From: an uncultured Acidimicrobiales bacterium
GTDB lineage: Bacteria; Actinomycetota; Acidimicrobiia; Acidimicrobiales; SZUA-35
Assembly (NCBI GenBank): GCA_963793385.1
Contig: CAWCAF010000016.1
Span: forward strand, 33,164-97,163
Direction of reading: 5' to 3'
DNA: 64,000 nucleotides
The notes under the pieces are model-generated. The model had not been told where the DNA came from. It made no database searches and worked only from the letters and a program-made list of their open reading frames with translations. Positions 3,609-34,398 of the stretch are shown here, one piece after another (the first letter of the stretch is position 1; the number at the start of each line of letters is the position of its first letter). The position numbers were made by a program, and so were the translations under genes.

Positions 3609-3827
3609 CACGTCGAGTCGATCGCACGGGCCGCAAGACCCCGCGAAAAGCCTAGCCCCGGGCGTCGAACCGTTCGCACTCGAACGGAGCGATAATCGGA
3701 CCGCGGAAGAAGAATCGGCGACATCGCAGCTGCGGGACGATTCTCGGCGACACCTCGCGCCCGGTTCCACGGTGCGGGACGTTTGGCTCCGGTAGATTCT
3801 CGTCGCAGTATCAACACCGTGACCGAA

Positions 3828-3861
3828 CCGACGGTGTCATGGCATCCGACGGTGTCATGGC
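3828..3861. repeat. Tandem direct repeat, 2 x 16 nt 'CCGACGGTGTCATGGC' with a 2-nt spacer, in a divergent promoter region
   Basis: Read directly: unit 1 is 3828-3843 and unit 2 is 3846-3861. 'ACACCGT' (3814-3820) is the inverted complement of the 'ACGGTGT' inside each unit. The repeat lies between the ACAD start (3608, minus) and the VOC gene (3947, plus). Confidence 0.6.
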
Positions 3862-3946
3862 CGATCGACCCACGGACGTCTTTCCCGATGGGTCGGATGG
3901 CACGACGGGATGCAATCATGGGCGTTCGACACCATGAGGGAGCCCG

Positions 3947-4453
3947 ATGTCCACCAGACCCGAAGCGATGCCGAACGACACAGATGCCCGCGATCGACTT
4001 CCGAGGTGGGCGGGCATGAACCACCTGGCATTGATCACCAACGACCTGGACACGACCACGAGGTTCTGGCACGGGACCCTGGGGGCCCCGCTCGTCGCCA
4101 CGATCGGAACACCCGAGTTCCGCCACTACTTCTTCGACACCGGCAGTTCGTGCGTGGCATTCTTCGAATACCGAAACGAACCGAGCCAGACACTGGCCAA
4201 GCCGGCCGGTGTCCCCGACCCTCGGGCGATGGCATTCGACCACATGTCACTCAATATGCCCGATGAGGCGGCGGTACTCGAACTCAAGGCTCGACTCGAA
4301 GCCTCCGGTACCGAGGTGACCACCGTCATCGATCACGGACTGATGCACTCGATCTACTTCATGGACCCCAACGGAATCGCCCTCGAAGCGTCGTGGTGGA
4401 CCGACGATCCGACCAACGGTCAGTCCGACGACGCGGCATTTCGGCGATCCTGA
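3947..4453 (+). CDS. VOC (glyoxalase/bleomycin-resistance/dioxygenase) family protein
   Basis: Intact ORF with 'MNHLALITNDLDTTTRFWHGTLG...HYFFD...FDHMSLNMPDEAAVLELKARLE...HSIYFMDPNGIALE'. The true start may be the internal ATG at 4016. Confidence 0.8.
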   Translation: MSTRPEAMPNDTDARDRLPRWAGMNHLALITNDLDTTTRFWHGTLGAPLVATIGTPEFRHYFFDTGSSCVAFFEYRNEPSQTLAKPAGVPDPRAMAFDHMSLNMPDEAAVLELKARLEASGTEVTTVIDHGLMHSIYFMDPNGIALEASWWTDDPTNGQSDDAAFRRS

Positions 4454-5388: not shown

Positions 5389-5555
5389 CGCAGATCCTCC
5401 AGGAGTCGGGCGACTCGCACAGCCTAGGGTCTAAGACGACCAGCGGAAAGCTGACCACGGTTTACTTCGTGGTCGGCACGCAATCTGACTCGACCGCCGG
5501 CTACGCGCCGGCCATGTGGGCCGTTCCTCGTGAGCGGTACCCCTAGACTCGGGAA

Positions 5556-6275
5556 ATGGATGGCGAAGTGACCCAGCCCGCTCGCTCGGCCGAGCTCGAG
5601 GCTCTGTTTCCCGACGTGGAGGGCATTGCGGTCTACGAATCCAATTCACTCCTGCAGGACGTGGCACCGCACCCCGACGAAGCCGCCTTCATCTCCAAGG
5701 CGGTGGAGAAACGCAGGGAGGAGTTCATCACCGGGCGGGCGTGTGCCCGTTCGGCGCTGTCCGCCTTGGGCATGGAACCTGTGCCCTTGCCGGTCGGCGA
5801 GGGGCGCCAACCCGAATGGCCCAGCAACATCACCGGATCGATCACCCACACCCGGCGCGACGGGCACGAGTTCATCGCAGCAGCGACAGCGTTCTCCGAC
5901 CGCGCCCCGCGACGCATCGGCATCGGCCTGGATGCCGAGGTGATCCAGCCGCTCAAGGACGGTGTTCGGGACATGTTGCTGACCCCTGATGAGATCGCTG
6001 CCGTGGAGGATTTGCCAGTCGATCAGCGGGAGACGGCGGCGATTACGGTGTTCAGCGCCAAGGAAGCCTTCTACAAAGCCCAGTACGCGATCACGGGGGC
6101 ATGGGTCGGCTTCGGCGACATGCATGTGCTCGGGCTCGCGGGATCGGGCACTCGCCAGCTCGCCCAGATCGGCGATCTCGAAGCACTCCGAGAGATCGAC
6201 TTCCCGGTCGACTGTCGTCAGATCGTCCGTAACGGCCTGGTGATCTCCGGTGTCACCGTGTGGACGCGGCTGTAG
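5556..6275 (+). CDS. 4'-phosphopantetheinyl transferase (EntD/Sfp type)
   Basis: Intact ORF with 'KRREEFITGRACARSAL...WPSNITGSITHT...IGIGLDAE...FSAKEAFYKA', the EntD-type PPTase motifs. Confidence 0.85.
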   Translation: MDGEVTQPARSAELEALFPDVEGIAVYESNSLLQDVAPHPDEAAFISKAVEKRREEFITGRACARSALSALGMEPVPLPVGEGRQPEWPSNITGSITHTRRDGHEFIAAATAFSDRAPRRIGIGLDAEVIQPLKDGVRDMLLTPDEIAAVEDLPVDQRETAAITVFSAKEAFYKAQYAITGAWVGFGDMHVLGLAGSGTRQLAQIGDLEALREIDFPVDCRQIVRNGLVISGVTVWTRL

Positions 6276-6448: not shown

Positions 6449-7774
6449 TCATGACGACGAGATCCTTCTGCGGATCCACAGGATCAGGCCGGCGAGCAGG
6501 AAGATCTCGCTGGCGTACGTTGCGAGGATCGCACCCGTGACTCCGTACGGACCGATCAGGGTCAGGTTGAGCGCAACGTTCAGCGCGCCGGCCCCGATGA
6601 TGAACCGGTTGCGTGTGCCCTGATGGCCGGCTCCGGTCAGCGCTTCTCCAGCGAGTAGTGCCGGCAAGTGGATCACGGGTACGAGGGCCATCAGGCGAAT
6701 GACCCCGATCGAATCGGAGTATCCCGCTCCCAATACGTCGTCGATCAGGGGTGCGATCGCGAAGAGGGCTGCACCCGCGGCGAGTGCGTAAGCGGTGACG
6801 GGTCGCATCAAATGCTTCGAGTAGGACCAGGTTCCAACGAGGCCCTTCTCGCCGCCCGTGGCGAAGAACCGAGGATAGGTGGCCGCCAGGAGGGCGTAGA
6901 GGGGTGCGGCCGCGAGTCCCAGAACCCGGTTGCCGGCGGAGTAGATACCGGTGGAGAACTCCGGGGTCGCGTCGAGGCGTATCAGCATCTGCTTGTCGAT
7001 ATCGCCGAGGACGACCCCGCTGGCCTGGGTGAGCGAGAACGGAGATCCATCTCGGCAGATCTGCACACTCGCCGCAACGGAGAATCTGGGCAGACCGATG
7101 ATCCTGGCTGCGGCGATCGAGCTCACCAGACCGGACCCGAGGCTGGCGGCCAGTGAGGCGACCGCCACGGCACGGAGCGTCGACAGGTCCAGGGCGAAGA
7201 AGGCGATCCCGAGGAAGCCGACCCGAAGCAGGGTCGCCCATACGGTCAGCGCCGCCGTCGTCGGGAAACGGTCCAGGGCAACAAGCGCCGATCCGGCCGG
7301 GCTCGTGGTGGCGATACCGATGAACTCGGCCAACGCGAGAATGAAGATGGTGCGGCCATCCATTCCCGGCACCGAGAGCCCCGCCAGGAGACCGAGGATC
7401 GCAGCGACGACCACCGAGAGGATCAGGCCCGGCACCAGCGCGGCACCCCATGCGTGCCGGGCGAGGGATGGATCCCGGCTCACCCGCTGAACGACGATGT
7501 GGAAGGTGCCCAGTGTAACGAAGGCACTGAGCAGCAGGAACAGCGCCATCGCAGCGGCGTAGAGCCCGTATTGTTCCTCGCCGAGGTAACGGGCCAGCAT
7601 CCAGAACACGATGATGGCGCCGACCGTGTGCGCGCCTCTCGCCAGGACGCTCCAGAAGGTGTCGTGGGTCAGCGAACGACGTTGGAGGACCGGCTCTTCT
7701 TCGTCGTCAGGCGTTGTGCCGGGTGGGAGCCCGGTTCGAGTGGTCAGCTCGTCGCCACCTGGTCGTGGATCCAT
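6449..7774 (-). CDS. Polysaccharide/oligosaccharide flippase (MOP superfamily, Wzx-like)
   Basis: Intact 441-aa ORF. It is strongly hydrophobic with many predicted TM segments ('WSVLARGAHTVGAIIVFWMLARYLGEEQYGLYAAAMALFLLLSAF...') and follows a sugar-nucleotide epimerase gene. Confidence 0.75.
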   Translation of the reverse strand: MDPRPGGDELTTRTGLPPGTTPDDEEEPVLQRRSLTHDTFWSVLARGAHTVGAIIVFWMLARYLGEEQYGLYAAAMALFLLLSAFVTLGTFHIVVQRVSRDPSLARHAWGAALVPGLILSVVVAAILGLLAGLSVPGMDGRTIFILALAEFIGIATTSPAGSALVALDRFPTTAALTVWATLLRVGFLGIAFFALDLSTLRAVAVASLAASLGSGLVSSIAAARIIGLPRFSVAASVQICRDGSPFSLTQASGVVLGDIDKQMLIRLDATPEFSTGIYSAGNRVLGLAAAPLYALLAATYPRFFATGGEKGLVGTWSYSKHLMRPVTAYALAAGAALFAIAPLIDDVLGAGYSDSIGVIRLMALVPVIHLPALLAGEALTGAGHQGTRNRFIIGAGALNVALNLTLIGPYGVTGAILATYASEIFLLAGLILWIRRRISSS

Positions 7775-8706
7775 GCGTAGGTTTTCTCCATGCCTTCACG
7801 CAGCGGGATCGACGGTTCCCATCCGAGGTGCTGCTGAATCAGAGTGTTGTCGCTGTTGCGTCCGCGCACACCCTGGGGAGCAGAAAGATCGTGGACCAGA
7901 TCGATCTTGACTCCGGCGATGTCAGCCACCATCTCGTAGAGGCCGTTGATCGTGACAAGCTCGGACGAGCCCACGTTGAGCGGAATGGTCACGTCGGAGT
8001 CCATCAACATGCGAGTGCCGGTCAGGCAGTCGTCGATGTACATGAACGATCGTGTCTGCAAGCCGTCGCCCCAGACCTCGATCGTGTGATCGCCGGTCAG
8101 TTTGGCGGCGGCGACCTTCCGGCACACGGCCGCAGGCGCCTTTTCGCGCCCGCCGGTCCAGGAGCCGTTCGGTCCGTACACGTTGTGATACCGGGCGGTG
8201 CGGAACTGTAGAGCGAAGTCCTCCATGAAATGGCGACCCATCCGCTCGGAGAACAGCTTCTCCCAACCGTATCCGTCCTCGGGGTCGGCGGGATAGGCGT
8301 CGCTCTCAGCCAGTGCGGTCACGTTCGGGTCGGATTGTTTGGAGCCGTTGTACACACACGCCGAGGATGCGTAGAAGACCCGTTCGACGTTCTTTGCCTG
8401 AGCTGCCATGAGAAGGTGGGTGTTGATCAGCACGCTGATCATGCAGGCCGCCTTGTTGTTCTCGATGAAACCCATACCGCCCATATCGCATGCGAGGTTG
8501 TAGATCCGGTCGACACCGTCGACAGCCTTGAGGCAGGCATCCTTCTCGGTCAGGTCGAGCACGAGGTTTTCGGCCGTACCGCTCTGCTGAAACCACTCCG
8601 CGGTCGGCTTGACATCGACACTCCGGACCTCGTGCCCCTCACCTTCCAAACGTTGAACCAGATGACCACCGATGAAGCCGCCACCGCCTGCTACCAGAAT
8701 CTTCAT
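7744..8706 (-). CDS. GDP-mannose 3,5-epimerase-like NAD-dependent epimerase
   Basis: Intact ORF with 'MKILVAGGGGFIGGHL'. It also has 'YASSACVY...AYPADPEDGYGWEKLFSE...RYHNVYGPNGSWTGGREKAPAAVCRK...EVWGDGLQTRSFMYIDDC...APQGVRGRNSDNTLIQQHLGWEP', which closely parallels the plant GME signature blocks (recalled, not searched). Confidence 0.8.
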   Translation of the reverse strand: MKILVAGGGGFIGGHLVQRLEGEGHEVRSVDVKPTAEWFQQSGTAENLVLDLTEKDACLKAVDGVDRIYNLACDMGGMGFIENNKAACMISVLINTHLLMAAQAKNVERVFYASSACVYNGSKQSDPNVTALAESDAYPADPEDGYGWEKLFSERMGRHFMEDFALQFRTARYHNVYGPNGSWTGGREKAPAAVCRKVAAAKLTGDHTIEVWGDGLQTRSFMYIDDCLTGTRMLMDSDVTIPLNVGSSELVTINGLYEMVADIAGVKIDLVHDLSAPQGVRGRNSDNTLIQQHLGWEPSIPLREGMEKTYAWIHDQVATS

Positions 8707-8737
8707 TGTTGTTTCTTCCTTCTTGCCGTCGAACTTG

Positions 8738-10120
8738 TCAAACCTCGACCAACGACCGCTCGTCTGGTGCTTCCTCGGTCAGGTCAATCGTCGGGATGTC
8801 CACGCTGTCGACCAGCCCGTCGCGGCGCCGTTCGTAGATCTGGTAGACACCTGCGATAGCCGTCAGCACGGCGATGACATACACCGACCGCGGAACCCGT
8901 ATGAACACTTCGACCAAGTCGTTGGTACCGAAGTCGGTCTCGAAGAGCCGCTCGATCATCCAGACCGAGGCGACAAGAGCCAGCACTACGGAACCGATCG
9001 TGAGCACCCACCGGTAGAGGACGGTATTCCGGAGAAGATACAGCAGTCCGAACATCACCAAGATCACCCCCACCTGACCGACCTCGATGCCCACATTGCG
9101 GCCGAGGAGGGAGACGAGTTGGGTCCGCCGGTCCACCTCGAGACCCGACACCAGTGATGCGAAGCCCATGCCATGGAAGAGGCCGAAGCCGAAGGCGATG
9201 ATCCATTCCTTGTTGGGGAAGATCGGCCGTAGGTTGTGTAACGCTGCGGCTGCGATCGACAGGGCAATGATCGTTTCGGTGACCTTGGCCGACGGCAGAG
9301 GCAGGATGTCGAGACCGGCAAGGGTGAACGTGATCGAGTGTGCGACCGTGAACATCGTGGCGATCTTCAGGATGCGCCACAGCGAGCGCCCGAAGCTGTC
9401 GGCAGGCTTCCAGCCGCCGAGGCTGAAGACCAGCACGCTGGGCAGGAGCAGAACGCAGATGAACAGGATGTGGTCGGGTCCGGTTCGGATGTGGTCCAGA
9501 CCCAGGGAGAAACTGGCTGTGAAGTTCTTCCAACCGCTCGGCTCGCCCAGGTCGATGGTCTGGCGGGGCGCATCGCTGTTGAAGGTGAAGAACCCGTCCT
9601 GTCCCTCACCGTTGTCGTAGATGCCCGCTTTCCAGTCGTTCTGGACGAGGAGCAGGGCGTTGTTGTCGTCGCTCAGTTCGAAGAACGGGTCGAACGTGAC
9701 GTCGAGTACCCGGGGTACCGTCCCTGTGGTGATCTCAGCGGTGTAGGGGATGATGACGTAGTTGATCTCCTCGTTGGGGTTGTCCTCGAAGAGGAACTCG
9801 ACATCGCCGAAGGTCAGTTCGTAGTTCTGACCCTCACCCCTGATGTCCAGGTGTTCGTCGGCATAGAAGCGCAGGTCCTCGACACGACCGACGAGCTCGG
9901 CCACATTCTCCTCCTCCGAGCCGTCCAGCCTGAATCCCAGCGCTTCCCTGAGATCGCCGAAGGGATAGTCGACTCGTCCGTTGAGGGACGTCTCGGTCAC
10001 GTTGACGTAGACGTAGCTGTCTTCGGCATTGTGGGCCGAGGCGACGCCGGTGAATGCAAAGCCAACCGACGCCAAGACCACCATCACCGCACTGAACACC
10101 AAGAACGACTTCTTCATCAT
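8738..10120 (-). CDS. HupE/UreJ-type membrane protein with signal peptide and large N-terminal extracytoplasmic domain
   Basis: Intact 460-aa ORF. It has a signal peptide 'MMKKSFLVFSAVMVVLASVGFAFTGVASA' and a ~200-aa acidic soluble domain. The polytopic C-terminus carries 'GLDHIRTGPDHILFICVLLL' and 'FGLFHGMGFA'. Confidence 0.7.
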   Translation of the reverse strand: MMKKSFLVFSAVMVVLASVGFAFTGVASAHNAEDSYVYVNVTETSLNGRVDYPFGDLREALGFRLDGSEEENVAELVGRVEDLRFYADEHLDIRGEGQNYELTFGDVEFLFEDNPNEEINYVIIPYTAEITTGTVPRVLDVTFDPFFELSDDNNALLLVQNDWKAGIYDNGEGQDGFFTFNSDAPRQTIDLGEPSGWKNFTASFSLGLDHIRTGPDHILFICVLLLPSVLVFSLGGWKPADSFGRSLWRILKIATMFTVAHSITFTLAGLDILPLPSAKVTETIIALSIAAAALHNLRPIFPNKEWIIAFGFGLFHGMGFASLVSGLEVDRRTQLVSLLGRNVGIEVGQVGVILVMFGLLYLLRNTVLYRWVLTIGSVVLALVASVWMIERLFETDFGTNDLVEVFIRVPRSVYVIAVLTAIAGVYQIYERRRDGLVDSVDIPTIDLTEEAPDERSLVEV

Positions 10121-10307
10121 TTCCTACCTCGCCGGGGGCTCGCGGACTTTCACCTATGCGTACGCACCTATCCGTAGCGCGGATGCATCCAAAATGCTAA
10201 GGCGAACGAAGTATTGCCCACAGGATGGTTCCATCGACCTAAGGAGAAATCGGAGGACAGGTGGTTGGATACCTTGATACGGAGTAATGGGACGGTGATG
10301 CCATCCC

Positions 10308-13300
10308 ATGCAGGAGAGACGAGAACGCGTGACCAGCACGGTGCACACAACTCAGGTTCGCCTCCAAAGGCTATGGGAGCTGAGCCCTATGCAGCGAGTC
10401 CTGTGGGCCTCGCAGCTGCGCCATCCGGACTCGCCGCATCAGAACATGGCCTTGCTGTCGCGGGTCCACGGGGAGGTCGACGGTAACCGTTTGGCCAAGG
10501 CCTTCGCCGCCGTCGTCGCCGCATCGGACGTTCTCCGGACCACGATCATCGATACCGAAGATGGACCCGTGGTCTCGCTGAGCGCCGCACCGGCCACAAC
10601 CGAGATCCTCTCGATGACGGTGGCTGACGCGATCGAGTGGGCCCGGGAGCGGGTTCGCCTCAGCCGCTCGACATGACCAAAGCCGCGTACGACAGCGTGA
10701 TCATCCAACACCCCGACGGAACGACATCGTGGTACCTGAACCTCCATCACGTCGTCACCGACGCCACCGCGTCGTCATCGGTCTTTGCGGCCACCGCTGC
10801 CGCCTACCACGGTGACACCCCCGAGATCCCGTCGTACTACTCGTGGTCTGCCGAATCTCGAACGTGCGACGGACCGCCGAACCGACGTGGCGACGCGCCA
10901 ACTGGGCGAGCCGCCAACGAGCCCCGAAAGTCGGTCGGCTCTACGAATCGGTCGGCACGCCCGATCCGGCCAGCCGGCGCCTGCAGCTGGACGTCGAAGA
11001 TGAGCTTCGGTCCAAGATCACCCAACGGCTGGAATCGGACTATCGCGCTCTGACCGATGATCTCGCATGGACGTCGCTGCTGATCACGACGACGGCGCTC
11101 TACCTGAACCGGGTCACCGGAGCCGAACAGGTTGCGATCGGCCTCCCTGTGCACAATCGCTCGGGTCTGGATCGAGTTCCTGTTCGGCCCGGTCATGGAA
11201 GTCTTCCCGGTCGATGTCACCATCGCCGCTGCCGACACGTTCCGCTCGCTGCACAAGCGGGTGTCGCGGGCGGTGGTTCACACGATCCGCCACGCACGAC
11301 CGGGAACCGCACCCGCCGCGACCGATATCGAAACGGTCGTCAACGTCATTCCTCGAGGAGGGATCGGCGCCTTCGGCACACACGAGGTGACAACCGACTG
11401 GGTTCACTCGGGCACGACCGACTCCGCTCATCTTCTCCGCGTCCAACTCACCACGTACGCAGACGACCAATCATCGCTGGCGCTCGACATCAACAACGCA
11501 GCCGCAACCGACGATCAGGCCGGTCGTGCTGCCCATCACTACGTGTCGGCCCTGACCGCCCTGGTGACCGACCCCGACCGTCCCGATCGGCACGGATCCG
11601 CTCATCACCCCCGAAGAGGCCTCAGCACTGGTCGAGTGGGGCGACCGGTCCTCCGAGGCGCTGGAGTCGCCGCTCCTTCCGGATCGGCTCTTCGCCGAAC
11701 TCGCCGGGCACCGCGCTGTGTCGGTTCAGGGCGACCGATCGCTCACCGGCGCACAATTGATGGCCGAGGTTCGTCGGGTCGGATCATGGCTCCGCCGCGT
11801 TCACGGCATCGGACCCGGCCGGCGGGTCGCGGTCCAGATGCCACGCAGCGTAGACGCCGTCGTGGCGATCCTTTCCACCTGGTGGGCCGGTGGATCCTAC
11901 GTCCCCATCGACGTCGCCCAGCCGGCAGGCCGCCGTCAGCAACTCATCGAACGGGCGGCCTGCGCACCGGTGCTGACCGAGCTTCCTTCCGAAGAGGCCG
12001 CACCGCCGGCACCCGATGCGGTCTCGACTCCGGTCACAGAGGCCGACGAGGCCTACCTGCTGTACACGTCGGGCTCGACCGGCGAACCCAAGGGCGTGCC
12101 CATCACTCACCGTGGCGTGGCCGACTACCTCGAATTCGCCAGGATCCACTACCTCCGTTCCGGCGAGAAACCGATCGTCCGCGCTGTTCAGCGCGCTCAC
12201 TTTCGACCTGACCGTGACCAGCCTCTTCCTGCCACTGCTCACCGGCGGCAAGCTGATCGTCGTCGAGGACGAGGGCGTGCCGGGGCTGCGCCAGATCGCC
12301 GAGACCCCCGAGATCACCTGGGCCAAGGCCACACCCTCCCATCTCGAACTGCTCGTGCACATGCTCGCCGCCCGACCATCGACTCGACACGCTCGTCGTC
12401 GGTGGCGAAGCGTTCGGTTCGCGGCTGGCTTCCCAGCTGTGGGAGAAGCGACCAGACCTCCGCATCTTCAACGAGTACGGCCCAACCGAGGCGGTCGTCG
12501 GCTGTATGATCCACCAAGCCTCTCCTTCCGAATCATGGGCTGATGTTCCGATCGGGCGACCCGCTCCCGGGGTCGAACTCCGCGTTCTCGACGTTCACCA
12601 GCAACCGGTGCCCCTCGGTTCGCCCGGCGAGCTGTATATCTCCCACAGAGGGATCACGCCCGGCTACCTCGGGGTCGGTACCGGCGCCCCGATCCTGACC
12701 GACGATCCTGAGGCCCCGTTCGTCCACCTCGACGGTCGGCGGTTCTACCGATCAGGCGACCTCGTACGGTTCGTGTGCCCTCGGACCCTGACCTATCTGG
12801 GCCGAGCCGATGAACAGATCAAGGTCGGCGGCATCCGTCTCGACCCGACCGAGGTGGAACGCCAGCTCGAGGCACATCCGGCCGTGTCGAGGGCAGCGGT
12901 CCGATTGTGGAGACCACGCTTCGACACAGCCCGAGCAGAATTGCGTCAGGTGCGGACTGCCGTCGAATGTGCCCGCTATCCAATTCGACGATCGGTGGGG
13001 TGTGCAGCACCTGCCATGAGTACGACAGGATCAAGGTCCACGCAGAGGACTACTTCAAGAACCTCGACGACCTCGGTGTCGAGTTGGAGCGGGCACGGGC
13101 TCAACGTGCTGGTCGCTACGACTGCCTCCATCTACTGAGCGGGGGCAAGGACTCGACCTACGCTCTCTACAAACTGGTCGAGCTCGGCTTCGAGGTGTAC
13201 GCCGTCACCTTCGACAACGGATTCATCTCCGAGGGAGCAAAGGAGAACGTACGCAAGAGCGTTGCCGACCTCGGCGTGGACCATGAGTTCATCACCTCCG

Positions 13301-16300
13301 AGGTCATGAACGCCATCTTCGCCGACAGCTTGGCACGCCACTCCAACGTCTGCCACGGCTGCTACAAGACGATCTACACCACCGCCACCACCAGAGCCGA
13401 CGAACTCGGTATCCCGATGATCGTCACCGGCCTCTCACGCGGGCAGCTGTTCGAAACCCGTCTCATCCCCCAGCAGTTCACGGATGACCGATTCGATCCT
13501 GACGCGATCGATCGAGCCGTCCTGCAGGCCAGGAGGGTCTATCACCGGGTCGACGACGGCCCGAACCGACTGCTGGACACCGGCGTGTTCGACAGCGACG
13601 ACATCTTCGACCGAATTCGTTACGTCGACTTCTATCGGTACGTCGACGTTGCGCTGAGCGAGATGTACCGGTTCCTCGACACCCAGGCGCCATGGCTGCG
13701 ACCCGACGACACCGGGCGTTCGACCAACTGCCTGATCAACGCCGCCGGTATCTACACCCACCAGTTGGAGCAGGGCTACCACAACTACGCCGAACCGTAC
13801 GCGTGGGATGTGCGCCTCGGGCACAAGACACGCGACGAGGCGATCGCCGAACTCGACGACCAGCTCGATGTCGACGACGTCAAACGAATGCTGACCGCGG
13901 TGGGGTACGAACCGAATCCACGGGAGGTCCTCGCTGCGTGGATCGAAACCGTCGGAGGTGCTGAAGCGCCCTCGCCAGCCGAGCTCCGGACCTGGCTCGT
14001 ACACGGGTCCCGTCGCACGCCGTCCCGTCGGCCTACATGATCGTCGACGCACTCCCAGTGACTTCCAACGGCAAACTCGACACCGCGAAGCTGCCACCGC
14101 CCGACCTCGTGCACCGCACCACCTCGAACCTTCACGTCAGCGCAGCCACCGAGCTGGAGGCAGCGATCGTCCGGGTGTGGGAGCGAGTCCTGGGCCTCGA
14201 ACCGATCGGCGTCACCGACGACTTCTTCGAACTCGGTGGCGACTCGCTGGCAGCATTGCAGTCGATCGTCCTGCTGAGCGATGCGATCGGACAGACCCTC
14301 CGCGAGGAGCTCGATCTTCGGGAACCGGACACCCCGAGCACTGCGCAGCGGCGATCGAGGCGGAAGACGACCGTCGAAACAGAACCGTCGACGGTCGGAG
14401 AGTCCGAGCAGCATCGAGCCGCCGCCATTGACACCCGGGCGAGGGTCGATGCTGTTCGATTGGCTGAACGATCCCGACTCGTCACGCAACAATGTCGGCC
14501 GCGCCTACGAGATCGATGGCTCGCTCGATCCCGAACGACTGGAGCGGGCCGTCACCGCCCTCGTCGAACGCCACGAGATCCTTCGCACCTCGATGGTGGA
14601 ACCACGGCGGGTCGTCACCGCTGCCGATGCGGTCGCATTCGACGTGGCCCCCTCGTGCTCGATCAGCGAACGTTTCGGGCTCAGGCCCACGAACACTTCC
14701 TGAAGCCCTTCGACCTCGACAACGGACCGTTCGTGCGAGTGCGCATGACCCCCATCGACGGCCTGAACCGGACCGGACTGCTGATTGCAGTGCACCATTC
14801 GATGATCGACGAGAGCGGCTTCGACACGCTCTTCACCGATCTCGCAACCCTGTACGAGGGGGGCCGACCGAGCCCACCCTCCATGACGCCATCGACGTTT
14901 CGCCGACGAGCTGATCCGGTGGTCGGACAACCCGACCGACCGCGCCTACTGGCTCTCGCACGCCCAGTCGGCGCCGGTCAGCACTCCGCGGTGGATCTCC
15001 ACGTCATCGGAGGCGGACGGCTTCATCGAACGTGCCGCCTCGTTCGGCATCGACACCCTGGATCGTGCCGCCGGGGTCGGGCCGGGTAGCGCTCGCTCTG
15101 GCGGCGGTCAGCCGTGTCGTGCGTCGCCGATCAGACGGTGATCGGATCGAGGTCGGGATCACGGCGTCGATCCGTCCGAGCTCGAGCTCGGAGATCTGAC
15201 GGGTTATGCGCTCAACGTCGTTCCGGTGGTGTGCACGACCGAAACCGACGGATCGCTGGCCCAGGTCGCCCGCGCGGTTTCGACGACACTGACCGACGCT
15301 CTGGCTCACCGCCAGTACCCGCTGGCATCCATCGTGCGGGACCGACGCCAGGAGGGCCTGCTCCGTGCCCGGCCTCAACGTGATGCTCGCCTACGGCGAA
15401 CTCTCACCGGTCTCGATCGACGGCCACAAAGGCGCCCACCGTGTCCTGGCCCCTGCAGATGCAGCCACCGACGTCACCTTCTTCGTGCAGGTCCGCGGCG
15501 AAGAGGTGAATCTGGGTCTCGAATACAGGGGAACGTCGCTGGGGCAGGTTGAAGCCCAGGCCATGCTCGGCGAATTCGAGACCGAATTGGCCGGTGCCGC
15601 TACATCCGATCCGTCGGCAATTCTCGACCCTGTCGCGTTGGCCACCGACGGCGACACTCTCTGCGAGTTCACCGATGGAGCCTCGACTTCTCGACGAGAT
15701 CGTCGTCGAACACGCCCGAGCGCAGCCCGACGCCCCGGCGGTGACCGCCGCCGACGTGACGATCAGCTACGGCGAGCTGGATCGTCGGGCCGAAGCCGTC
15801 GCCGAGGTGCTGGACCGGCACGCGAATGGGTCCCGGCTCGCTTGTGGGCGTGCTGGCGTCGCGTGACCCGGAAACGGTCGTGGGAATCCTCGGGATCCTC
15901 AAGGCTGGGGCCGCCTACGTGCCGATCGATCCCGACTACCCACTCGACCGCATCGCCCACATGGTGGCCGACTCGGGGATCGACACCGATCGTCAGTCGC
16001 GGCGAGACGAGCGAGGCGGTTCCCGATGGCGTCTCGACGTCGTGCATCTAGGGCCCAATCCTCGGACCCGACCAGTCGATCATCGGGACGGACCGCCATG
16101 CGCTCGCCCGCGGGATCTCGCCTACGTGATCTACACCTCGGGTTCGACCGGGCGCCCCAAAGGGGTGCAGGTCAGCCACGCCAACATCTCGTTCTCCACG
16201 ATGGCTCGACCGCAGGTGTACGACCACAACCCGGATGCGTTTTCTCCTGCTCAGCTCGTTCGCCTTCGACTCGTCGATGGTGGGGTTGTGGTGGTCACTG

Positions 16301-18281
16301 TGCACCGGCGGCACGATCGTGCTTCCCGAGGAAGGCCGACACTCCGACGTGCACCACATCGCCGAGCTCATCGAGTCCCGCCGAGTGACCCATGTGCTGG
16401 CGATCCCGTCGCTCTATGCGGTGCTTCTCGGACGAGGTCGACCCTGCGCAGCTGCGTTCACTCAACACCGCCATCGTCGCCGGTGAAGCCTGCCCGCCCA
16501 ATCTGGTCAGGTCCCACTTCAGCACACTCCCCGATACCGAACTCCACAACGAGTACGGACCGACAGAGACGACCGTCTGGAGCCACCATCACCGGTTCGG
16601 TCCGGATCACTCGATCGATCAGCCGATCCCGATCGGAGACGCGATCCCCGGCGTTGTGGACAGGGTCCTCGATGCCGAGCGGCAACCGGTGGAGGTGGGT
16701 GGAACCGGCGAGCTCTACATCGGCGGACCGGGCGTCAGCGCCGGCTACCTCGGTCAGCCCGAGCTGACCGCCGAGCGGTTCGTGGTCCTCGACAGCGGCG
16801 GCCAGACGTTCTACCGAACCGGCGACCTCGTCCGCCGCCTCGACGTTACGACGCTCGAGTTCGTCGGACGGGTCGACGAACAGGTGAAGATACGTGGGTT
16901 CCGGATTGAACTCGGCGAGATCGAGGCGGCCCTGCTCACCGATTCCCGTCTCCGGGCGGCCGCGGTCGGCACCGTTGAGACGCCTGACGGACTCCGCCTG
17001 GCAGCGTGGTACCGACCGGTCGACCGAGCCGCCGTGACGAGCGATTCGTTGCGATCGCAGCTCAGATCCTCCCTCCCCGAACCCATGATTCCGTCGTTCT
17101 ACATCGAGGTCGACGAGATGCCATTGACCCCCAACGGCAAGGTCGACCGATCAGCCCTACCCGAACCCGTGATCAAGCGACGCGCCACGGCCCCACCCCC
17201 GGGTCCACTGTCCGGCACCGAACAGCAAATGCTGGGACTCTGGCGAGAAGTGATGGACGATCCCACCCTGGGCCCCGATGACGACTTCTTCGATCGAGGG
17301 GGCCACTCCATCATGGCGGTGCGCCTCGTGAGTCGGATCAGACGCGATCTCGGCTTCGCAGTGCCGCCCGCTCAGCTGCTCCGATCGGGAACGGTGCGGT
17401 CGTTGATGTCCGTCCTGGCGGTGGCGTCGCCGGATGAAAAGTCGGTCCAGGCGGTCAATGCCGTGTATCGCCACATCGTTCCGATGCTCGATCCGGACAC
17501 CGCCCTGCCCAACATCTTCGTGATCCACGGCGCTGGCGGCGACGTGTTGAATTTTCGAGTCCTCGCCAAACATCTGAGGGGGCTGGCCAACGTGATCGGA
17601 GTGCAGGCCGCCGGTGTCGATGGGGTCTCCGAACTCCATATGTCGAGGGAGGACATGGTCCGTGACTACCTCAGGGAGATCCAGGCATTTCAGCCACAGG
17701 GGCCGTACTTCGTCGCCGGGTCCTCCATCGGCGGGCTGATCGCAATCGAACTGGCCCGGTCGATTCAGGACGCCGGCCACGTTGTGGATCGGGTGGTCCT
17801 GTTCGATGTCTTTCACCCGTCGGCGCTAGCCCGGACGCTGACGTTCTCCGAGCAGCTGTCGTATCTTCGCGCCGAGGGCGTGGGCTATGCCCTCGAAGAT
17901 CTCTCCTACCAGTGGCAGAAGTACGTCGGCAACAGGTGGAGGGACTACCGACTGAATCGGGCCCGGACAGGAAAGCGAAATCGATCGGACGGGGCGATCC
18001 CTTTCGAGCTCAGGAAGGCGGAGATCACCGAGAACACGGTCCACATCTGGTTCGGGCACACACCGGACCACTACGCCGGTCGGGTGCTGTTGTTGTCCGC
18101 TGACGAAACGTACGATGTGTGGGATCACGTCCCTCGCCATCGCGAATGGGCCGGCCAGGTAGATGAGCTCGATGTGATCCATGTTCCCGGAAACCATGAG
18201 ACGCTGGTCGAGGAGCCGCACGTCGCGGTCCTGGCCCGTCGTCTGAGCGACGCTCTGGTACTGCATGGCGTCGACGGCTGA
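10308..18281 (+). CDS. Non-ribosomal peptide synthetase, C-A(PP-loop insert)-T-C-A-T-TE; heavily frameshifted in this sequence (at least ~15 frame changes)
   Basis: Domains were followed across frames.
- C1: 'LSPMQRVLWASQL' and 'HHVVTDA' (~10744).
- A1: 'LLYTSGSTGEPKG' (~12060), 'NEYGPTE', 'GRADEQIKVGGIRLDPTEVE' (~12800) and 'VPSAYMIVDALPVTSNGKLD' (~14020-14080).
- T1: 'FFELGGDSLAA' (~14225).
- C2: 'HHSMIDES' (~14793).
- A2: 'YTSGSTGRPKG' (~16135), 'NEYGPTETT', 'GRVDEQVKIRGFRIELGEIE' and 'LPLTPNGKVDR'.
- T2: 'FFDRGGHSIMA' (~17290).
- TE: 'IFVIHGAGGD', 'GSSIGG' (~17718), ending at 18281. Confidence 0.9.
12905..13975 (+). other. PP-loop ATP-pyrophosphatase domain (WbpG/PseA N-acetyl-sugar-amidotransferase-like) inserted in NRPS adenylation domain 1 between A8 and A9/A10
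   Basis: 'CVRCGLPSNVPAIQFDD..GVCSTCHEYD' forms a zinc-ribbon-like pair of CxxC motifs. 'RYDCLHLLSGGKDSTYALYKLVELGFEVYAVTFDNGF' holds the SGGKDS PP-loop at 13138-13155. 'HSNVCHGCYKTIY' and 'IPMIVTGLSRGQLFE' follow. A8 lies upstream and A9/A10 downstream. Confidence 0.75.
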
Positions 18282-18331: not shown

Positions 18332-19488
18332 TCATCGCCCGGACCCCCGGTCTCGGATGGGTCGATCGACGTGCAGCAGTCGTGCGACGAGATTGCGGGC
18401 GATCTCGGAGGTTCCGGAGTAGGCGAGTCCGCCGATAGCGTCCCGCAGCTCGGCCTCGACGGGACCGGCCGTCGTGTAGCCCTCGGCACCGTGGATCCTC
18501 ATCGAGTCGAGGGCGGAATGGACCGCCGTCTCCGAGGTCTGCAGCTTGGCCAACGCTCCTGCCATCGTCATGGATTCGCCCCGATCGTAGAGTTCTGCAG
18601 CCTTGTAGATCAGGAGACGAGCACTCTCGTGACGCAGTTTCATCTCGGCGATTTTGTGCGAGATTGCCTGGAAACTCCCGATCGGTTTGCCATAGGCGTG
18701 ACGCCGACGGGCTCGATCGACGCTCAGGTTCAGAATCCGCTCGATCGATCCCATCTGAGCGGCATACAGAAAGGCCCGTTCGGCTTCTACAGCGGAGCTG
18801 AAGATGCTGCCGCCGGATCCGGGGAGCCGAGCAGATCATCGGGTCCGGCCGCGCACTCGGTGAAGCGGATCTCGGCCCATGGGCAGCTGTTCATTCCCAT
18901 CTTGGGTTGCGTCGCTCCTACCTCGATTCCGTCACGATCGGATTCGAGGATGAAGCCGGTGATGCCCCAATGCCCCTTGGAAGGGTCGGTCGAGGCAAAG
19001 ACGACGATCACGTCGGCGACGGGCGAGAGGGTGGCCCACGCCTTGGTGCCGTTGATGACGTAGTGACCATCGGCCTGCGGTTGGCGATCGGTCGAGATCG
19101 CACCGGTGTCGGACCCGGCACCGGGTTCGGACATGGCAAAGCAGCCGATCGACGTGCCGGAGCCGAGCGCCGGAAGCCAGCGACGTTTCTGCCGCTCGGA
19201 TCCGGCGGTGATCAGGGCCCGCTGCAAGGCGAACGTCTGTGACGCGAGTGCAAAGACGAATCCGTTGTCGGCGGTGCCCAGGCCGAGGCCTTCGAACGTG
19301 AGCGCTGCTTCGACCGCCGATTCTGCCCGAATCCGCCGATACTCCGGCGGGATCATCGAGCCCTGGACTCCGAATTCGGCGGCAAGGGCCCAGCGACGGG
19401 CATCGAAACCGTCGGTGCCGGAGTCCGCCAACGACGCAGCGGCAAAGTCCGCCGCCGCCATTTTGATCGGATGTCGAAGGTCGAGCAT
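18332..19488 (-). CDS. Acyl-CoA dehydrogenase family protein (~385 aa; one frame break near ~18780)
   Basis: ORF 18787..19488 has 'CFAMSEPGAGSDTGAISTD...YVINGTKAWATL'. ORF 18332..18754 has 'GKPIGSFQAISHKIAEMK...IHGAEGYTT...LRDAIGGLAYSGTSEIARNLVARLL'. Confidence 0.85.
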
Positions 19489-19795
19489 CGCGTCGAGAGC
19501 GAGAGACCTCCCCTGTCGGTTGGATGTCGAAGGCCGAGCATGACGTCATCAGCGACGCCGCCACCTCGTCTCTCCGCTCCTTCGCATCACCTCTCCTTAC
19601 GCCCGGCGCCCGCGAGCGGATTCACATGTGCTCGCACCAGTGAACCAGTGACTCGGCTCGGCAATCGGGAGGAAGAACGACCCGACGACCAGGGTAGAAG
19701 CGCCCCTGTGCAGCGAGCGCACGCTTCGTACTCTCGCGCACCAGGGCGGATCGTGCATCCGTGGCCGCTATTCGCCGTAGTACCCTGCTGCCACC

Positions 19796-21371
19796 ATGAA
19801 ACCCGCCACCCTCGCCGAGCTACTCCGGCACGCGTCGTCTCTCCGGCCGACCGGCGATGCCATCGTCGGTCTCGAAGAGGATCTTCACCTGGCCCGAGGT
19901 CGAAGAGCGCACCAGGAAGCTCGCGCAGCGCCCTGGTCGCCCACGGCGTTGAGACCGGCGACCGGGTGGCGGTGATCCGGCCGAAGGGCCACGAGTCCTT
20001 CGAGGCGGTGCACGCCGTCTTGCGGCCGGAGCGATCATGGTGCCGATCGATCCGATGGCGCCGCCGGCAGCGGCGAGAGCCGTCGCCTCCGACGCCGGCG
20101 ATCAGCGCCGTGATCGGTCACGCTCCCACGATCAGACGAAGCGGCGTTCTCGAACTCGATGACCTCGATCTCAAGGTCGTCCTGTCCACCGGCAAACACC
20201 GGAGCAACTCACTGGTCCGGCACCGATCGTGAACATCGATTCACCTCTGGACCTGCGCTTCGACAACGACCTCCCCGACGTAGGACCGGACGATCCCGCC
20301 TACCTGATCTACACGTCGGGGTCGACGGGCGTACCCAAGGGCATCCTGCACACGCACCGCAGCGGTCTCGCCTACGCCGAGGGCGGCCGACGAACACGAG
20401 CTCACACACGAGGATCGCCTGGCGGCGATGACCGCCCTCCACTTCGACATGTCCACCTCGAGTTGTACGCCCTTCCGTTGGCCGGCGGGCACCGTCGTCC
20501 AGATGAGCGAGCCACATCTGCGGTTCCCTGCGAGCTTCACCGAACAGGGCCGCAGCGGAGAAGACCACGGTCTGGTACGGCATCCCGTTCCTCCTCGAAC
20601 AAGTGGTGACGAGGGGAGTACTGGCCGACCGGGACATGAGTGCGCTTCGCTCGGTCATCTACGCCGGCGAGGTGTTCCCCCCGAGTGCCTTGAGAGCACT
20701 GATGGCCGCGCTCCCCGGCGCCCGATTCGAGAACGCCTACGGACCCGCGGAGGTCAACGCCGTCACCGTCCACCGGCTGTCGGGACCACCCGCCGAAGGT
20801 CAGGATGTCCCTGTGGGCGTCCCCTGGCCGGGGGTGGAGGTGCTGATCGTCGACGACGACGAGCAACCCGTCCCCGACGGCGAGATGGGTGCGCTGTGGG
20901 TGTCGGCTCCCACACGCATGCGGGAGTACTGGAACCGTCCCGATCTCACCGAGGCCACCCGTCGCCGTCGCCGGACGGGACCTGACTGGTACGTGACCGG
21001 GGACCTTGCGACCCGCGACGAGCACGGCGTCATCTGGTTCCACGGGCGACGCGACCACCAGGTGAAACTCCGTGGCATACGAGTCGAGCTCGAAGGCGTG
21101 GAAGCAGCTCTCACCGATCATCCCGAGGTCCGCCAAGCCGTAGCAGGACCGTGGGGAGCCGAACCGGGCACCCTGGCCGCAACGGTGGTCGTTGGCGATC
21201 GACTGCACCATCGATCTTCGCAGTCTGCAGAAGTGGTCAGCCCGCCGTCTCCCCGCCGTCGCCGTCCCCGCCCATCTCGAGGTGCTCACCTCCCTTCCCC
21301 AGACCCCGAGCGGCAAGGTCGACAGAAAATCGATCAGAGCGCGCATGGCAGCCACCAAGGAACCAGAATGA
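19796..21371 (+). CDS. Stand-alone adenylation (AMP-binding) enzyme; at least 3 frame breaks
   Basis: Followed across frames: 'GVETGDRVAVIRPKG', 'AYLIYTSGSTGVPKGILHTHRSGLAY', 'NAYGPAEVNAVTVH', 'WYVTGDLATRDEHGVIWFHGRRDHQVKLRGIRVELEGVEAAL' and 'LPQTPSGKVDRKSI'. The stop TGA at 21369-21371 overlaps the next ATG (ATGA). Confidence 0.85.
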
Positions 21372-21633
21372 ATCACGTCACGACCCTCACCGACGCCCTC
21401 TGCGAGTTCATCGATGCCGAGGTCAGCCTCGACCCGGACACCCCCGTCGAGCCTGACACCGATCTGCTGACCACGGGCCTCGTCGATTCGCTGGGCGCAA
21501 TGGAGATCGTCCACTGGATCGAGGAATCGCCGGGGATCTCCACATCGAACCGGCCGACGTGACGATCGAGAACTTCCAGACCGTCGACCGCATGGTGGCC
21601 CTCGTCGCCCGTCTCGAGTCTCAGCAGCCCTGA
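21368..21633 (+). CDS. Stand-alone acyl/peptidyl carrier protein (one frame break near ~21535)
   Basis: 'MNHVTTLTDALCEFIDAEVSLDPDTPVEPDTDLLTTGLVDSLGAMEIVHWIEE' contains a DSL phosphopantetheine-attachment motif. A second frame continues as '...ENFQTVDRMVALVARLESQQP*'. Confidence 0.75.
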
Positions 21634-22980: not shown

Positions 22981-23767
22981 TCAGCCGGCGAAGCCGGTGA
23001 CGCCTCCGTCAATGGGGATGACCGCACCGTCGATGTAGGCGCCGGCCCGACTGGACAACCAGAGCACGGTCCCGGCGATGTCCTCGGGTGAGCCGATCCG
23101 CCCGAACGGAACGGTCGACTCCACCATCGCCCGGCCCTCACCCTCGAGCGCCCCCGCCATCATCTGTGACTCGAACGGTCCCGGCGCGATCGAGTTGACC
23201 GTGATGTGATCATTGGCCAGCTTCTGACCCAGGTGCCGGGCCATCATGTGCACCCCCGCCTTGGAAGCCGAATAGGAGAAGTTGTCGATCCAGGTGGGTA
23301 CGGCGATGCCGTTGATCGATCCGGTCATGATCACCCGAGCCGGATCCTCGGCGCTGGCCGCAGCGCGCAGCAGGGGCAACAGCATGCTGGGTGAGGAAGA
23401 ATGGCGATTTCAGGTTGATGTCGATCACCTTGTCGAACCCGATCTCGGGGAACTTGCCCAGCGGCGCCACCCAGTTGGCACCGGCGTTGTTGCACAGGAT
23501 GTGGAGCTTGTCCTCGTGCGATTCGAACTCGTCGGCGAAGGACCGAACCCCTTCCGACGTGGAGAGATCGGCCGGGAGGGAGACACACTCGCCCAGTTCG
23601 CTCAACCGTTCGGCGGCCTCGTCGCACGCTGCCGCCTTCCGGGCGGTGATGTACACCTTGGCCCCACCGGAGAGCAATCCGGTGGCCATCATGTAGCCGA
23701 TCCCTCGGGAACCGCCGGTGACGATGGCGGTCTTGCCCTCCACGCTGAACAGTCGAGTCACATCCAT
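22981..23767 (-). CDS. SDR family oxidoreductase (one frame break near ~23390)
   Basis: 'GKTAIVTGGSRGIGYMMA', 'NNAGANW' and 'YSASKAGVHMMARHLGQKLANDHITVNSIAPGPF...IDGGV' (TGxxxGxG, NNAG and YxxxK motifs). Confidence 0.85.
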
Positions 23768-26969: not shown

Positions 26970-28318
26970 CTACGACGGATCTGTGACCTGGCCGAGGAAG
27001 AGCATCTCGCCGGTGGAGGAGTGCTCGATCCAGAAGAGGAACGGACGGTCGGCGGTGAATGTGGCGGGCTCCGGGGCGGACGTCAGGCCGATGATGAGCG
27101 CGGTGGCTGCCGCCGCCTCGGTGCCTTCCTCGTCCAGGGCGATGAACGTCTTGTGAAACGCGTCGGAGACGTAGAGCTCGCGCATCTCGGTGATGCCGGT
27201 CAGATCGGCGCCGCTGGTCGGCGACGGCGGCTCGAACGCGGTCGTCATGCCGAGTTGCTGGAGCGCCGGCTTGAGAGCGATCTCGGCGTCGAACTCGAAT
27301 GACGGGAGCGTGATCTCGACCCGGCGGTCACCCCAGGCGATGTCCAGATCCTCCGGTTCCAGTGCGGCGGCCAGGTCGGCCGGCGACCCCGACCTCGGAA
27401 GCAGAACCACCATGGCGGCGTCACCGGCGTAGGGCAGGCGGACGGCTTCGAACAGCCCGGTCTCGGCATAACCGGTGCGCAGGCTGGCCTGCATCAGCGG
27501 TACCCGGATCTCGGAGTCGTCGAGCAGTGTGAACGAGCCCGGCGCCGTGAGTTGGGGATCGAACGCTTCGTACCAGTTGGCGTAGAACCATATGGCGTTC
27601 ACGAGCGCCAGTCGGGTGTCGACGGTGATACCGCCTTCCGGGATGAGGTCCTTGATGCGATCTTCGGTGGTCTCCTCGACCCATCGATTGATGATGGCTC
27701 GGGAGCCGTCCGGGTCTCCGGCGTAGTCGAGAAGGCGGAGGCCGGCCCCGTAGTCGGTGGCCAGAACGGTCAGGTAGTCGTCGCGGAATGGGTAGCCGCC
27801 CTGCCCCCAGGCGGAGTTGGCGGGCCGGATGGTGAAGGGTTGGCGCGTGTCGGACTCACCCATCGGCGCGGGAGGGGTGGCCAGCGCTGTGTCGATGTGG
27901 TTGCGGACGGCGTGGAGGGTGTCGTCGTCCACGTCGAGGTGGAGCACCTGGGCGATTTCTTCGGCGGTGGTTCCCCGCGCCCCGGGATAGAGCATGCTCA
28001 GGGCGGTGGCGATCGAGTACGGGGAGATCATCGTGTTGTCGTCGGTCGGCGACGATGTCCCAGGAGGTCGAGTCCGAACGCGGCATCGGCCGCCACCACG
28101 GCGGCGATGTCGGATTCGGTGACCGAGGCCGACGTGCGCGGCAGATCGACCCGGACCTCGTCGCCGGGGGTGAACGCCTCGGTGCGATTCCCGGGATCGA
28201 CCGTCGTGGGAGTGGGGGGAGTTGTCGTGGTCGCCGCTCCGTCTGTGGATCCACACCCCGCCGTGACCATCGCCAAGGCGAGTAGCGGAGCAAGGAACCG
28301 GGTGTTCGTCATGCTCAT
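26970..28318 (-). CDS. Serpin family lipoprotein (one frame break near ~28040)
   Basis: The N-terminus 'MSMTNTRFLAPLLALAMVTAGCGS' is a signal peptide with a lipobox. The serpin core has 'SPYSIATALSMLYPGARGTTAEEI', 'VNAIWFYANWYEAF' and the hinge/RCL 'FIALDEEGTEAAAATALIIGLTSAPEP', followed by 'FTADRPFLFWIEH'. Confidence 0.85.
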
Positions 28319-34389: not shown

Positions 34390-34398
34390 GGTCCGAGC

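Follow-up and report, generated by a model that had tools for sequence, protein, structure and literature searches.

A predicted AMDH domain interrupts the first adenylation domain of a bimodular non-ribosomal peptide synthetase from an uncultured Acidimicrobiales bacterium

Introduction

What reaction does a PP-loop domain perform when it is found inside an adenylation (A) domain? The question is raised by a 64,000-nucleotide stretch of DNA from an uncultured Acidimicrobiales bacterium (contig CAWCAF010000016.1 of assembly GCA_963793385.1, positions 33,164 to 97,163; hereafter the window, in whose numbering all positions are given), which carries the gene of a bimodular non-ribosomal peptide synthetase (NRPS) with such an insert in its first module. 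The initial annotation of this DNA related the insert to N-acetyl sugar amidotransferases (NASATs) and proposed that it forms an amidine or an amide on the tethered substrate, a step that it did not count among the described classes of interrupted A domains. Judging from sequence comparisons, we consider it likely that the insert is instead an AMDH domain of the kind known from CysH, that it sits in an Asn-activating A domain in the first module of the synthetase and makes β-cyanoalanine or isoasparagine on the carrier, and that the frameshifts that break the gene in the window are assembly errors.

Results

A PP-loop domain separates A8 from A9

The NRPS gene (10302-18257; all features lie on the + strand unless stated otherwise) was delimited by tblastn with NRPS1 and NRPS2 of an intact relative, L004, and by Pfam searches on its pieces. 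It reads C-A(AMDH)-PCP-C-A-PCP-TE, where C stands for condensation, PCP for peptidyl carrier protein and TE for thioesterase. The A domain of module 1 runs through its core A1-A8 at 11586-12925 (motif coordinates; AMP-binding and TIGR01733 matches), with A3 at 12063-12095, FDLTV at 12202-12222, A5 at 12470-12490, A7 at 12746-12760 and A8, GRADEQIKVGGIRLDPTEVE, at 12800-12859. A domain of about 340 residues follows (12942-13960), after which the A domain resumes at 14007-14081 with A9 (VPSAYM) and A10 (SNGKLD, including the catalytic Lys), a region that gives a weak AMP-binding_C match and in which VPSAYM…NGKLD occupies 14022-14081. The module then continues into its PCP, or thiolation, domain (14160-14330; Pfam PP-binding, E 3e-9; GGDSL at 14235-14249). 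With a foreign catalytic domain lodged between a8 and a9, the protein belongs to the a8-a9 class of interrupted A domains.

The insert opens with a tetracysteine ribbon (12942-13014) composed of CVRCG (12942-12956) and, beyond a frameshift, GVCSTC (12997-13014). Once one base is taken out the motif is complete (CVRCG…GGVCSTC) and matches the zinc motif CXXCXn[GN]XCXXC of NASATs. Family alignments A1 and A2 show no variation in its four cysteines, nor in the PP-loop ATP-binding motif SGGKDS (13138-13155). Three extra cysteines, forming a CxxC…C triad, are invariant too: two lie in NVCHGCYK (13345-13368), the distance from S to CxxC being 66 aa, and the third lies 123 aa beyond the CxxC in DTGRSTNCLIN (13708-13740), the most conserved motif of the family. 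The codons of the three cysteines are at 13351-13353, 13360-13362 and 13729-13731. Between NVCHGCYK and DTGRSTNCLIN stands TGLSRGQLFETRL (13426-13464), with TGLSRGQ located from 13426 on. Every motif quoted in the initial annotation was recovered at the position given there.

The insert is identified as an AMDH domain

Literature searches on interrupted A domains, or on NRPSs combined with PP-loop or adenine nucleotide alpha domains, returned no description that matched this arrangement, and the link came through the specificity code of the host. The code of the module-1 A domain, DLTKVGEVG(K), is of the Asn type, and a literature search on specificity codes led to PMC12283262, where DLTKIGEVGK is listed both for Asn and for the 'Cya-3' module of AlbIV, which provides the β-cyanoalanine of albicidin, and hence to the antibiotics albicidin and cystobactamid. 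AlbIV (CAE52342) comes from Xanthomonas albilineans and CysH (KP836244) from Cystobacter velatus. DLTKIGEV- is carried by the A domains of both AlbIV and CysH, and DLTK[V/I]GEVG(K) was read in all of the interrupted A domains for which the code was extracted (69/69). The host A domain is thus predicted to be Asn-specific.

Comparison with the AMDH domain of CysH, whose sequence we took from the source data of PMC7966384, yielded 48% identity over 327 aa with 3 gaps (E 6e-121). Of 82 invariant positions in the family alignment, 76 have the same residue in the CysH domain, which is 46-55% identical to other members of the family. Furthermore, SGGKDS of the insert corresponds to the 'SGGKD' motif of AlbIV and CysH (PMC7966384 supplement, PMC8949500). 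This identity and the shared invariant residues mark window positions 12942-13960, on sequence criteria, as a bona fide AMDH domain.

The fold is that of the PP-loop superfamily

The best match of the insert among hidden Markov models (HMMs) is TIGR03573, the N-acetyl sugar amidotransferase model. The alignment takes in positions 22-320 of the 344 in the model, with E 5.9e-28 and a score of 98.3 bits, below the curated cutoff of 203.2 bits. Weaker matches are to Pfam QueC (E 4e-8), ThiI and LarE. These similarities greatly exceed what chance would give, and HMMs place the insert in the PP-loop (α-adenine-nucleotide-hydrolase, α-ANH) superfamily. The two features that define NASATs, SGGXDS and the zinc motif (PMC10607449), are both present. 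An AlphaFold (AF2) model of homologue P0002, spanning A7/A8, the insert, A9/A10 and the PCP, was obtained with pLDDT 85 and pTM 0.78. Its best match in the Protein Data Bank by Foldseek is the Legionella NASAT 8wex (E 1.4e-11, target-normalised TM 0.58). Next come NRPS Asub-PCP structures, which are matched by the flanks and among which is 5wmm, an A domain interrupted by a methyltransferase, and then [4Fe-4S] LarE, TtuA and YcfA. Motifs, HMMs and fold therefore agree with the first part of the initial annotation, a NASAT-type PP-loop domain (zinc ribbon plus SGGKDS) inserted at A8-A9 and followed by A9/A10 and a PCP. TIGR03573 and QueC recognise the insert, AMP-binding and weakly AMP-binding_C the host, and the model of P0002 shows an insert flanked by Asub-PCP-like structure.

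The CxxC of NVCHGCYK aligns with that of [4Fe-4S] LarE 8cnz (E 6e-10). Among the four genuine NASATs that we compared, the CxxC…C triad is present in one, a Rhodobacteraceae enzyme encoded next to hisH/hisF (L084:4992-6197), and is missing from the three others (L085, L086 and L087); by this trait there seem to be two NASAT subtypes. The triad may be a metal site, which would fit the dark brown colour in which CysH purifies (PMC7966384).

The frameshifts most likely arose in assembly

In its present form the gene of the window cannot be translated, its A8-to-PCP pieces being spread over three reading frames (three-frame translation). Relative to L003, which is intact and, at 88% nucleotide identity, the closest of the relatives compared, there is an extra base near 12920, shifting the frame between A8 and the ribbon, another near 12992, inside the ribbon between FDD and GGVC, and a missing base near 14010, between the end of the AMDH domain and A9. 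Correction of these three indels restores one continuous frame that starts at A8, takes in the insert and A9/A10 and reaches the PCP. In the gene as a whole, single-base indels create at least 12 frame segments, as determined by tblastn of the intact L004 NRPS1 and NRPS2 and by three-frame translation.

These breaks could be real, in which case the locus would be decaying in this organism and the domain idle here. This would be in line with the number of indels, three in the insert region and at least 12 in the whole NRPS, with the breakage of the partner genes for the acyl-CoA-dehydrogenase-like enzyme (ACAD), the stand-alone A enzyme and the PCP while HupE, flippase and epimerase genes nearby are intact, and with the fact that only 18 of 110 gaps of a length other than 3n in the blastn alignment to L003 touch a homopolymer, many of the 1-nt gaps at 88% identity being alignment artefacts. 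Nevertheless, unrelated genes far from the cluster are also broken or only partially matched, and the gene is similarly broken on other long-read metagenome contigs. The L003 orthologue (88% nucleotide identity) reads through in a single frame, and the L004 orthologue (85% amino-acid identity) is an intact NRPS of 2,712 aa in which the insert occupies residues ~870-1200. Moreover, the insert differs from that of L003 by 43 synonymous and 16 non-synonymous codons and by no gap in 987 nt, a strongly purifying pattern. Broken genes across the window, intact relatives, the synonymous excess and the ungapped insert make an assembly error likelier than a pseudogene, so that we regard decay as improbable and the frameshifts as most likely assembly errors.

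Partial or broken genes elsewhere in the window were seen at 22984-23409, 36524-37738, 37897-39114, 50226-52628 and 61806-63260, and several unrelated genes gave only partial Pfam matches or appeared as two families fused in one open reading frame (ORF).

A further possibility contemplated at the outset was that the PP-loop region is a separate ORF. A8, insert, A9/A10 and PCP form a single continuous ORF in homologues P0002, P0003, P0017 and P0100, and this continuity in relatives shows that the fusion is genuine.

Characterised relatives point to a nitrile or isoasparagine

In the work of Cociancich 2015, as cited in PMC8949500 and PMC7966384, the A domain of AlbIV/Alb04 prefers Asn, and its 342-aa insertion with SGGKD was proposed to convert Asn-S-T to β-cyano-L-alanine in cis; according to these citing sources the albicidin authors proposed phosphorylation as the activation step. 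The homologous 38-kDa domain of CysH was named "AMDH" by Groß et al. 2021 (PMC7966384), who followed it by intact-protein mass spectrometry: Asn bound to CysH loses 18 Da, while Asn bound to CysHΔAMDH does not, an in vitro dehydration that gives β-cyano-L-alanine. Once the AMDH domain is deleted, linkers with isoasparagine or cyanoalanine are no longer formed. In the cystobactamid pathway, β-hydroxylation by CysJ comes first and directs the domain to isomerisation; without CysJ, linkers with Asn, isoasparagine and nitrile all appear (PMC7966384). The same study remarked that AMDH has numerous homologues in biosynthetic gene clusters of unknown function.

By analogy, the module-1 A domain would load L-Asn onto the downstream PCP and the inserted AMDH domain would act in cis on Asn-S-PCP. 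ATP bound at the SGGKDS loop would activate the side-chain carboxamide oxygen, giving an O-adenylated imidate, an intermediate that we infer from PP-loop chemistry in general. Loss of the activated oxygen would yield the nitrile, β-cyano-L-alanine; alternatively, Asn would be turned into isoasparagine. The nitrile-forming half-reaction of QueC is an analogy for the adenylated intermediate. QueC/ToyM-type nitrile synthetases are PP-loop enzymes that convert a carboxamide to a nitrile with ATP, acting on free 7-deazapurine bases; their similarity to the insert is limited to the nucleotide-binding core, and their zinc site is different. The window protein would be expected to carry out the same dehydration or isomerisation, through an adenylate.

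Of what the initial annotation had proposed for the chemistry, one part is very probably right: the domain works in cis, using ATP to activate a carbonyl of the tethered substrate. The amidine or amide as product is not supported: the AMDH domain of CysH, 48% identical, dehydrates PCP-bound Asn to the nitrile and mediates the conversion to isoasparagine (PMC7966384), and ammonia donors are not conserved beside the NRPSs. Conversion of Asn to a nitrile or isoasparagine would be the best-supported reaction for this domain, rather than amidine or amide formation.

A NASAT-like amidotransferase would adenylate the carbonyl of the tethered amide for attack by ammonia to give an amidine, or would amidate a carboxylate. 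The likeness to NASATs (WbpG/WbuX/PseA; LpNASAT 8WEX) is considerable: SGGxDS, the zinc tetracysteine, the fold, a nearly full-length HMM match and a presumed ATP activation of the amide oxygen are common to both, and NASATs are the closest family outside NRPSs by TIGR03573 (E 5.9e-28) and by 8wex (E 1.4e-11). In addition, the copy in Roseovarius lies in a locus that also holds HisH and HisF-like genes. On the other hand, NASATs are free-standing, act on the N-acetyl group of sugars, add ammonia and usually have HisH/HisF-like partners, whereas the insert scores 98 bits against a cutoff of 203 for TIGR03573, has no ammonia-donor partner and has a carrier-bound amino acid as its predicted substrate. 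HisH/HisF or AsnB adjoin true NASATs; at the 82 NRPS loci that we compared they are not conserved, and they are absent from the cluster of the window. The characterised homologue CysH yields nitrile and isoasparagine (PMC7966384), so that the AMDH relatives studied eliminate the activated oxygen where NASATs substitute it. Amidation of Asp to Asn is not needed either, since the code of the A domain is of the Asn type. Taken together, these points leave an amidotransferase very unlikely.

We find hardly credible, finally, a thioamide synthetase like CtaC of closthioamide (PMC6772006), in which the triad would hold a [4Fe-4S] cluster and sulfide would be passed on to the PCP-bound substrate at its adenylated amide. 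In favour of it, CtaC is of the α-ANH type, combines motifs for zinc and ATP with a three-Cys motif and tailors a PCP-tethered amide; the triad is invariant, its spacings of 66 and 123 aa comparing with 76 and 127 aa for CtaC; the CxxC of the triad aligns with that of LarE 8cnz; TtuA, LarE and YcfA are among the fold matches; and CysH is dark brown. Against it, CtaC is free-standing and inserts sulfur, its TtcA/TtuA-like local motifs (read from mutagenesis primers) are unlike those of the insert, the triad is shared by a genuine NASAT encoded beside HisH/HisF, and sulfur-mobilising genes were not found close by at the 82 loci or in the window. What weighs most, along with the differing motifs, is that CysH gives a change of -18 Da and not +16 Da (PMC7966384).

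The predicted AMDH domain lies in-line, unlike its studied relatives

CysH resembles the window protein in having a ~340-aa SGGKD(S) domain inside an Asn-activating A domain ahead of a T domain and, for the window protein by prediction, in acting on carrier-bound Asn. The differences lie in its surroundings. CysH is a stand-alone A(AMDH)-T protein; CysB carries its product over to an assembly line whose own A domain is inactive, and the hydroxylase CysJ and the O-methyltransferase CysQ direct the outcome. In the window the AMDH domain lies in-line, as part of the first module of a C-A-T-C-A-T-TE synthetase. AlbIV, as cited in PMC8949500 and PMC7966384, likewise shares the SGGKD insertion, the Asn code DLTKIGEVGK and the proposed formation of β-cyano-L-alanine in cis; it differs as a stand-alone A-T protein of a polyketide synthase-NRPS pathway with p-aminobenzoic acid (pABA), with the nitrile as the only product described in those sources. 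The window does not fit an albicidin/cystobactamid-type pathway, the module being in-line and homologues of the pABA genes, CysB and CysJ not being found within it. A-domains interrupted by methyltransferases (TioS A4-M, 5WMM; PMC8341866) share the position of a tailoring insert at a8-a9 in Asub and a substrate held on the downstream T domain; their guest is a SAM methyltransferase.

The surrounding gene cluster

The cluster extends over roughly 0.3-21.6 kb of the window. At the starter position the NRPS has an N-terminal C domain (10302-11599, aligning with residues 3-433 of L004 NRPS1; the L004 protein carries Pfam Condensation domains). Downstream lie a gene for an ACAD flavoenzyme (18353-19503, - strand, frameshifted near 18820) with RedW/PigA as best match, a frameshifted stand-alone amino-acid adenylation enzyme (20289-21338 by tblastn, its start lying further upstream) and a small free-standing carrier protein, also frameshifted (21398-21600 by tblastn), whose orthologue has a Pfam PP-binding domain. 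With two models of L-prolyl-[PCP] dehydrogenases, NF045652 and NF053553, the ACAD orthologue scores 352 and 351 bits, short of the cutoff in both cases, and the orthologue of the stand-alone A enzyme passes TIGR01733 (328.5 bits, cutoff 317.4). This combination of free-standing A enzyme, PCP and RedW-like dehydrogenase probably supplies the starter of the NRPS. Since the ACAD matches RedW/PigA models best and the A enzyme passes an amino-acid-adenylation model, the starter is possibly a pyrrole-2-carboxyl-type unit; a look-up of the specificity code of the stand-alone A enzyme gave no match, and proline as its substrate is what we infer. A fatty-acyl (FAAL) lipoinitiation cassette of AMP-ligase, ACP and ACAD was considered and rejected, as the NCBIfam models favour an amino-acid A enzyme with a prolyl-PCP-dehydrogenase-like partner.

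Upstream of the NRPS are a HupE/UreJ_2 membrane protein, which is a conserved neighbour of these synthetases (8741-10123, - strand), an NAD-dependent epimerase/dehydratase (7747-8778, - strand), a Polysacc_synt (MOP flippase-like) gene (6452-7795, - strand) and, just upstream of the cluster, an Sfp-type 4'-phosphopantetheinyl transferase (5547-6272). A ketosynthase represented by its N-terminal domain only (337-1800, - strand) and a glyoxalase-family gene (3938-4450) may also belong to the NRPS cluster. An acyl-CoA dehydrogenase gene (2115-3836, - strand) is split by an in-frame TGA at 2913-2915, its N and M domains lying upstream of the stop and its C domain downstream in the same frame.

Elsewhere in the window, a 677-aa ORF (26973-29003, - strand) contains a full serpin domain (E 3e-91), serpins being uncommon in bacteria, and adjoins a peptidase S51 gene and two PmbA/TldD genes (31620-34398). 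A molybdenum hydroxylase set at 39002-43460 (+ strand) comprises a FAD/CO-dehydrogenase flavoprotein subunit, an 877-aa MoCo-binding subunit and an XdhC maturation factor.

The in-line architecture is widespread

An exhaustive HMMER search at E<=1e-30 returned 563 representatives of 50%-identity clusters. Among the best 150 of the 563, almost all are proteins of 1,000-3,200 aa with the domain uniformly placed at about residue 850-1000. A scan of one genome per species over 185,579 species found at least 589 loci with the domain. Its usual place is the first C-A-T module of a long NRPS. Carriers belong to Acidimicrobiia, Bacteroidota, Rhodobacterales, Gemmatimonadota, Myxococcota and other groups, and the closest relatives among the matches listed are metagenome-assembled genomes of Acidimicrobiales. 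Across the 82 NRPS loci the recurring partners are a stand-alone A enzyme (42), HupE/UreJ_2 (40) and an ACAD (38), as well as a PCP. The idea of a family of short proteins, which came from a word-indexed search that listed proteins of up to ~640 aa only, was abandoned: gene contexts and the exhaustive search trace it to length bias or contig fragmentation, the family being made up mainly of proteins of 1,400-3,200 aa.

The same cassette was observed in a cultured organism, Roseovarius pelagicus HL-MP18, on plasmid NZ_CP106737 (146106-179107; L089), where A, methyltransferase, ACAD, PCP and HupE/UreJ genes accompany a 2,682-aa NRPS, a flippase and a short-chain dehydrogenase/reductase, the whole being embedded in a glycan locus with a cytidylyltransferase, glycosyltransferases, HisH and HisF-like genes. 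Cultured carriers also occur in Pseudohalocynthiibacter, Zobellia and Arenibacter. Two other plasmids carry the domain in different forms. On NZ_CP009349 of Bacillus thuringiensis HD1002 (L083:14992-15963) it occurs as a free-standing, full-length homologue annotated as QueC, 30% identical and keeping the ribbon, the PP-loop and the CxxC…C triad; the gene before it encodes an ACP, and the thiotemplate cluster to which both belong also has two PCPs, two adenylating enzymes, a ketosynthase, a TE, AsnB and a radical SAM enzyme. On NZ_CP108680 of Streptomyces sp. NBC_01216 (L090:14062-18112) an AMDH-like domain (41% identity) is N-terminal to a fused C domain, preceded by an uninterrupted A-PCP protein, with asnB immediately upstream and an amino-acid racemase downstream.

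Discussion

Our results identify the guest of the interrupted A domain, on the strength of its likeness to CysH, as an AMDH domain that would act on carrier-bound Asn. Several points weigh against this interpretation. To begin with, the gene is not translatable in the window without correction. The core of the host A domain shares only ~35% identity with its counterparts in AlbIV and CysH, and a comparison of L004 NRPS1 with the N-termini of both proteins places it no closer to them than the A domain of the second module, whereas the insert reaches 48% identity; by these figures the guest is more conserved than its host. The AlbIV sequence compared covers its N-terminal 470 aa, its insert being likened by description, and the CysH and AlbIV sequences stop short of the A9/A10 region that follows the insert. 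The biochemistry of AMDH was worked out on CysH, a stand-alone module. Finally, the pathway context is wholly unlike that of cystobactamid or albicidin, with no pABA genes, CysB-type shuttle or CysJ/SyrP-like hydroxylase found in the window, so that the outcome of the AMDH reaction could differ here.

The claim of novelty made for the insert does not stand. Such an insert was described for AlbIV/Alb04 (Cociancich 2015, via PMC8949500 and PMC7966384) and named AMDH in 2021, the class being known, from these sources, since 2014/2015 and characterised in 2021. The impression that it was missing from the described classes stems from a survey of interrupted A domains (PMC8341866) devoted to M-domain inserts, which makes no mention of PP-loop, amidotransferase, QueC, hydrolase, ATPase or 'unknown function'; this reflects the scope of the survey, restricted to M-type inserts, and not a real gap. 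A survey of the architecture had been named beforehand as capable of overturning the claim, and it did: the architecture is already common (563 representatives, at least 589 loci) and, in CysH, functionally characterised. What we describe is not a new enzyme class. New are the in-line placement in module 1, the uncharacterised family of clusters and the Acidimicrobiales host.

A broader proposal can be formulated on these grounds, which we put forward tentatively and regard, taken whole, as rather unlikely. The window cluster would be one member of a widespread NRPS family, built of a starter cassette of a Pro-type A enzyme, a PCP and a RedW-like dehydrogenase, an in-line C-A(AMDH)-T module, HupE/UreJ_2 and an MOP flippase, that makes small (pyrrolyl-)β-cyanoalanine or isoasparagine peptides. 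Its AMDH domain would perhaps derive from a NASAT and hold, on the triad, a TtuA/LarE-like Fe-S cluster or a second metal centre. Such a centre would explain the brown colour of CysH and would bear on the mechanism of AMDH.

The presence of an AMDH insert together with the code DLTK[V/I]GEVGK can flag modules that likely incorporate β-cyanoalanine or isoasparagine, modules that current A-domain predictors would call "Asn". The NASAT-like fold and the conserved three-Cys site suggest testable hypotheses on the mechanism of AMDH. Furthermore, the in-line form makes up most of the family, with hundreds of 50%-identity clusters, while the stand-alone form is the only one studied. Cultured carriers of the in-line form exist, such as Roseovarius pelagicus HL-MP18, and offer a practical way to find its product.

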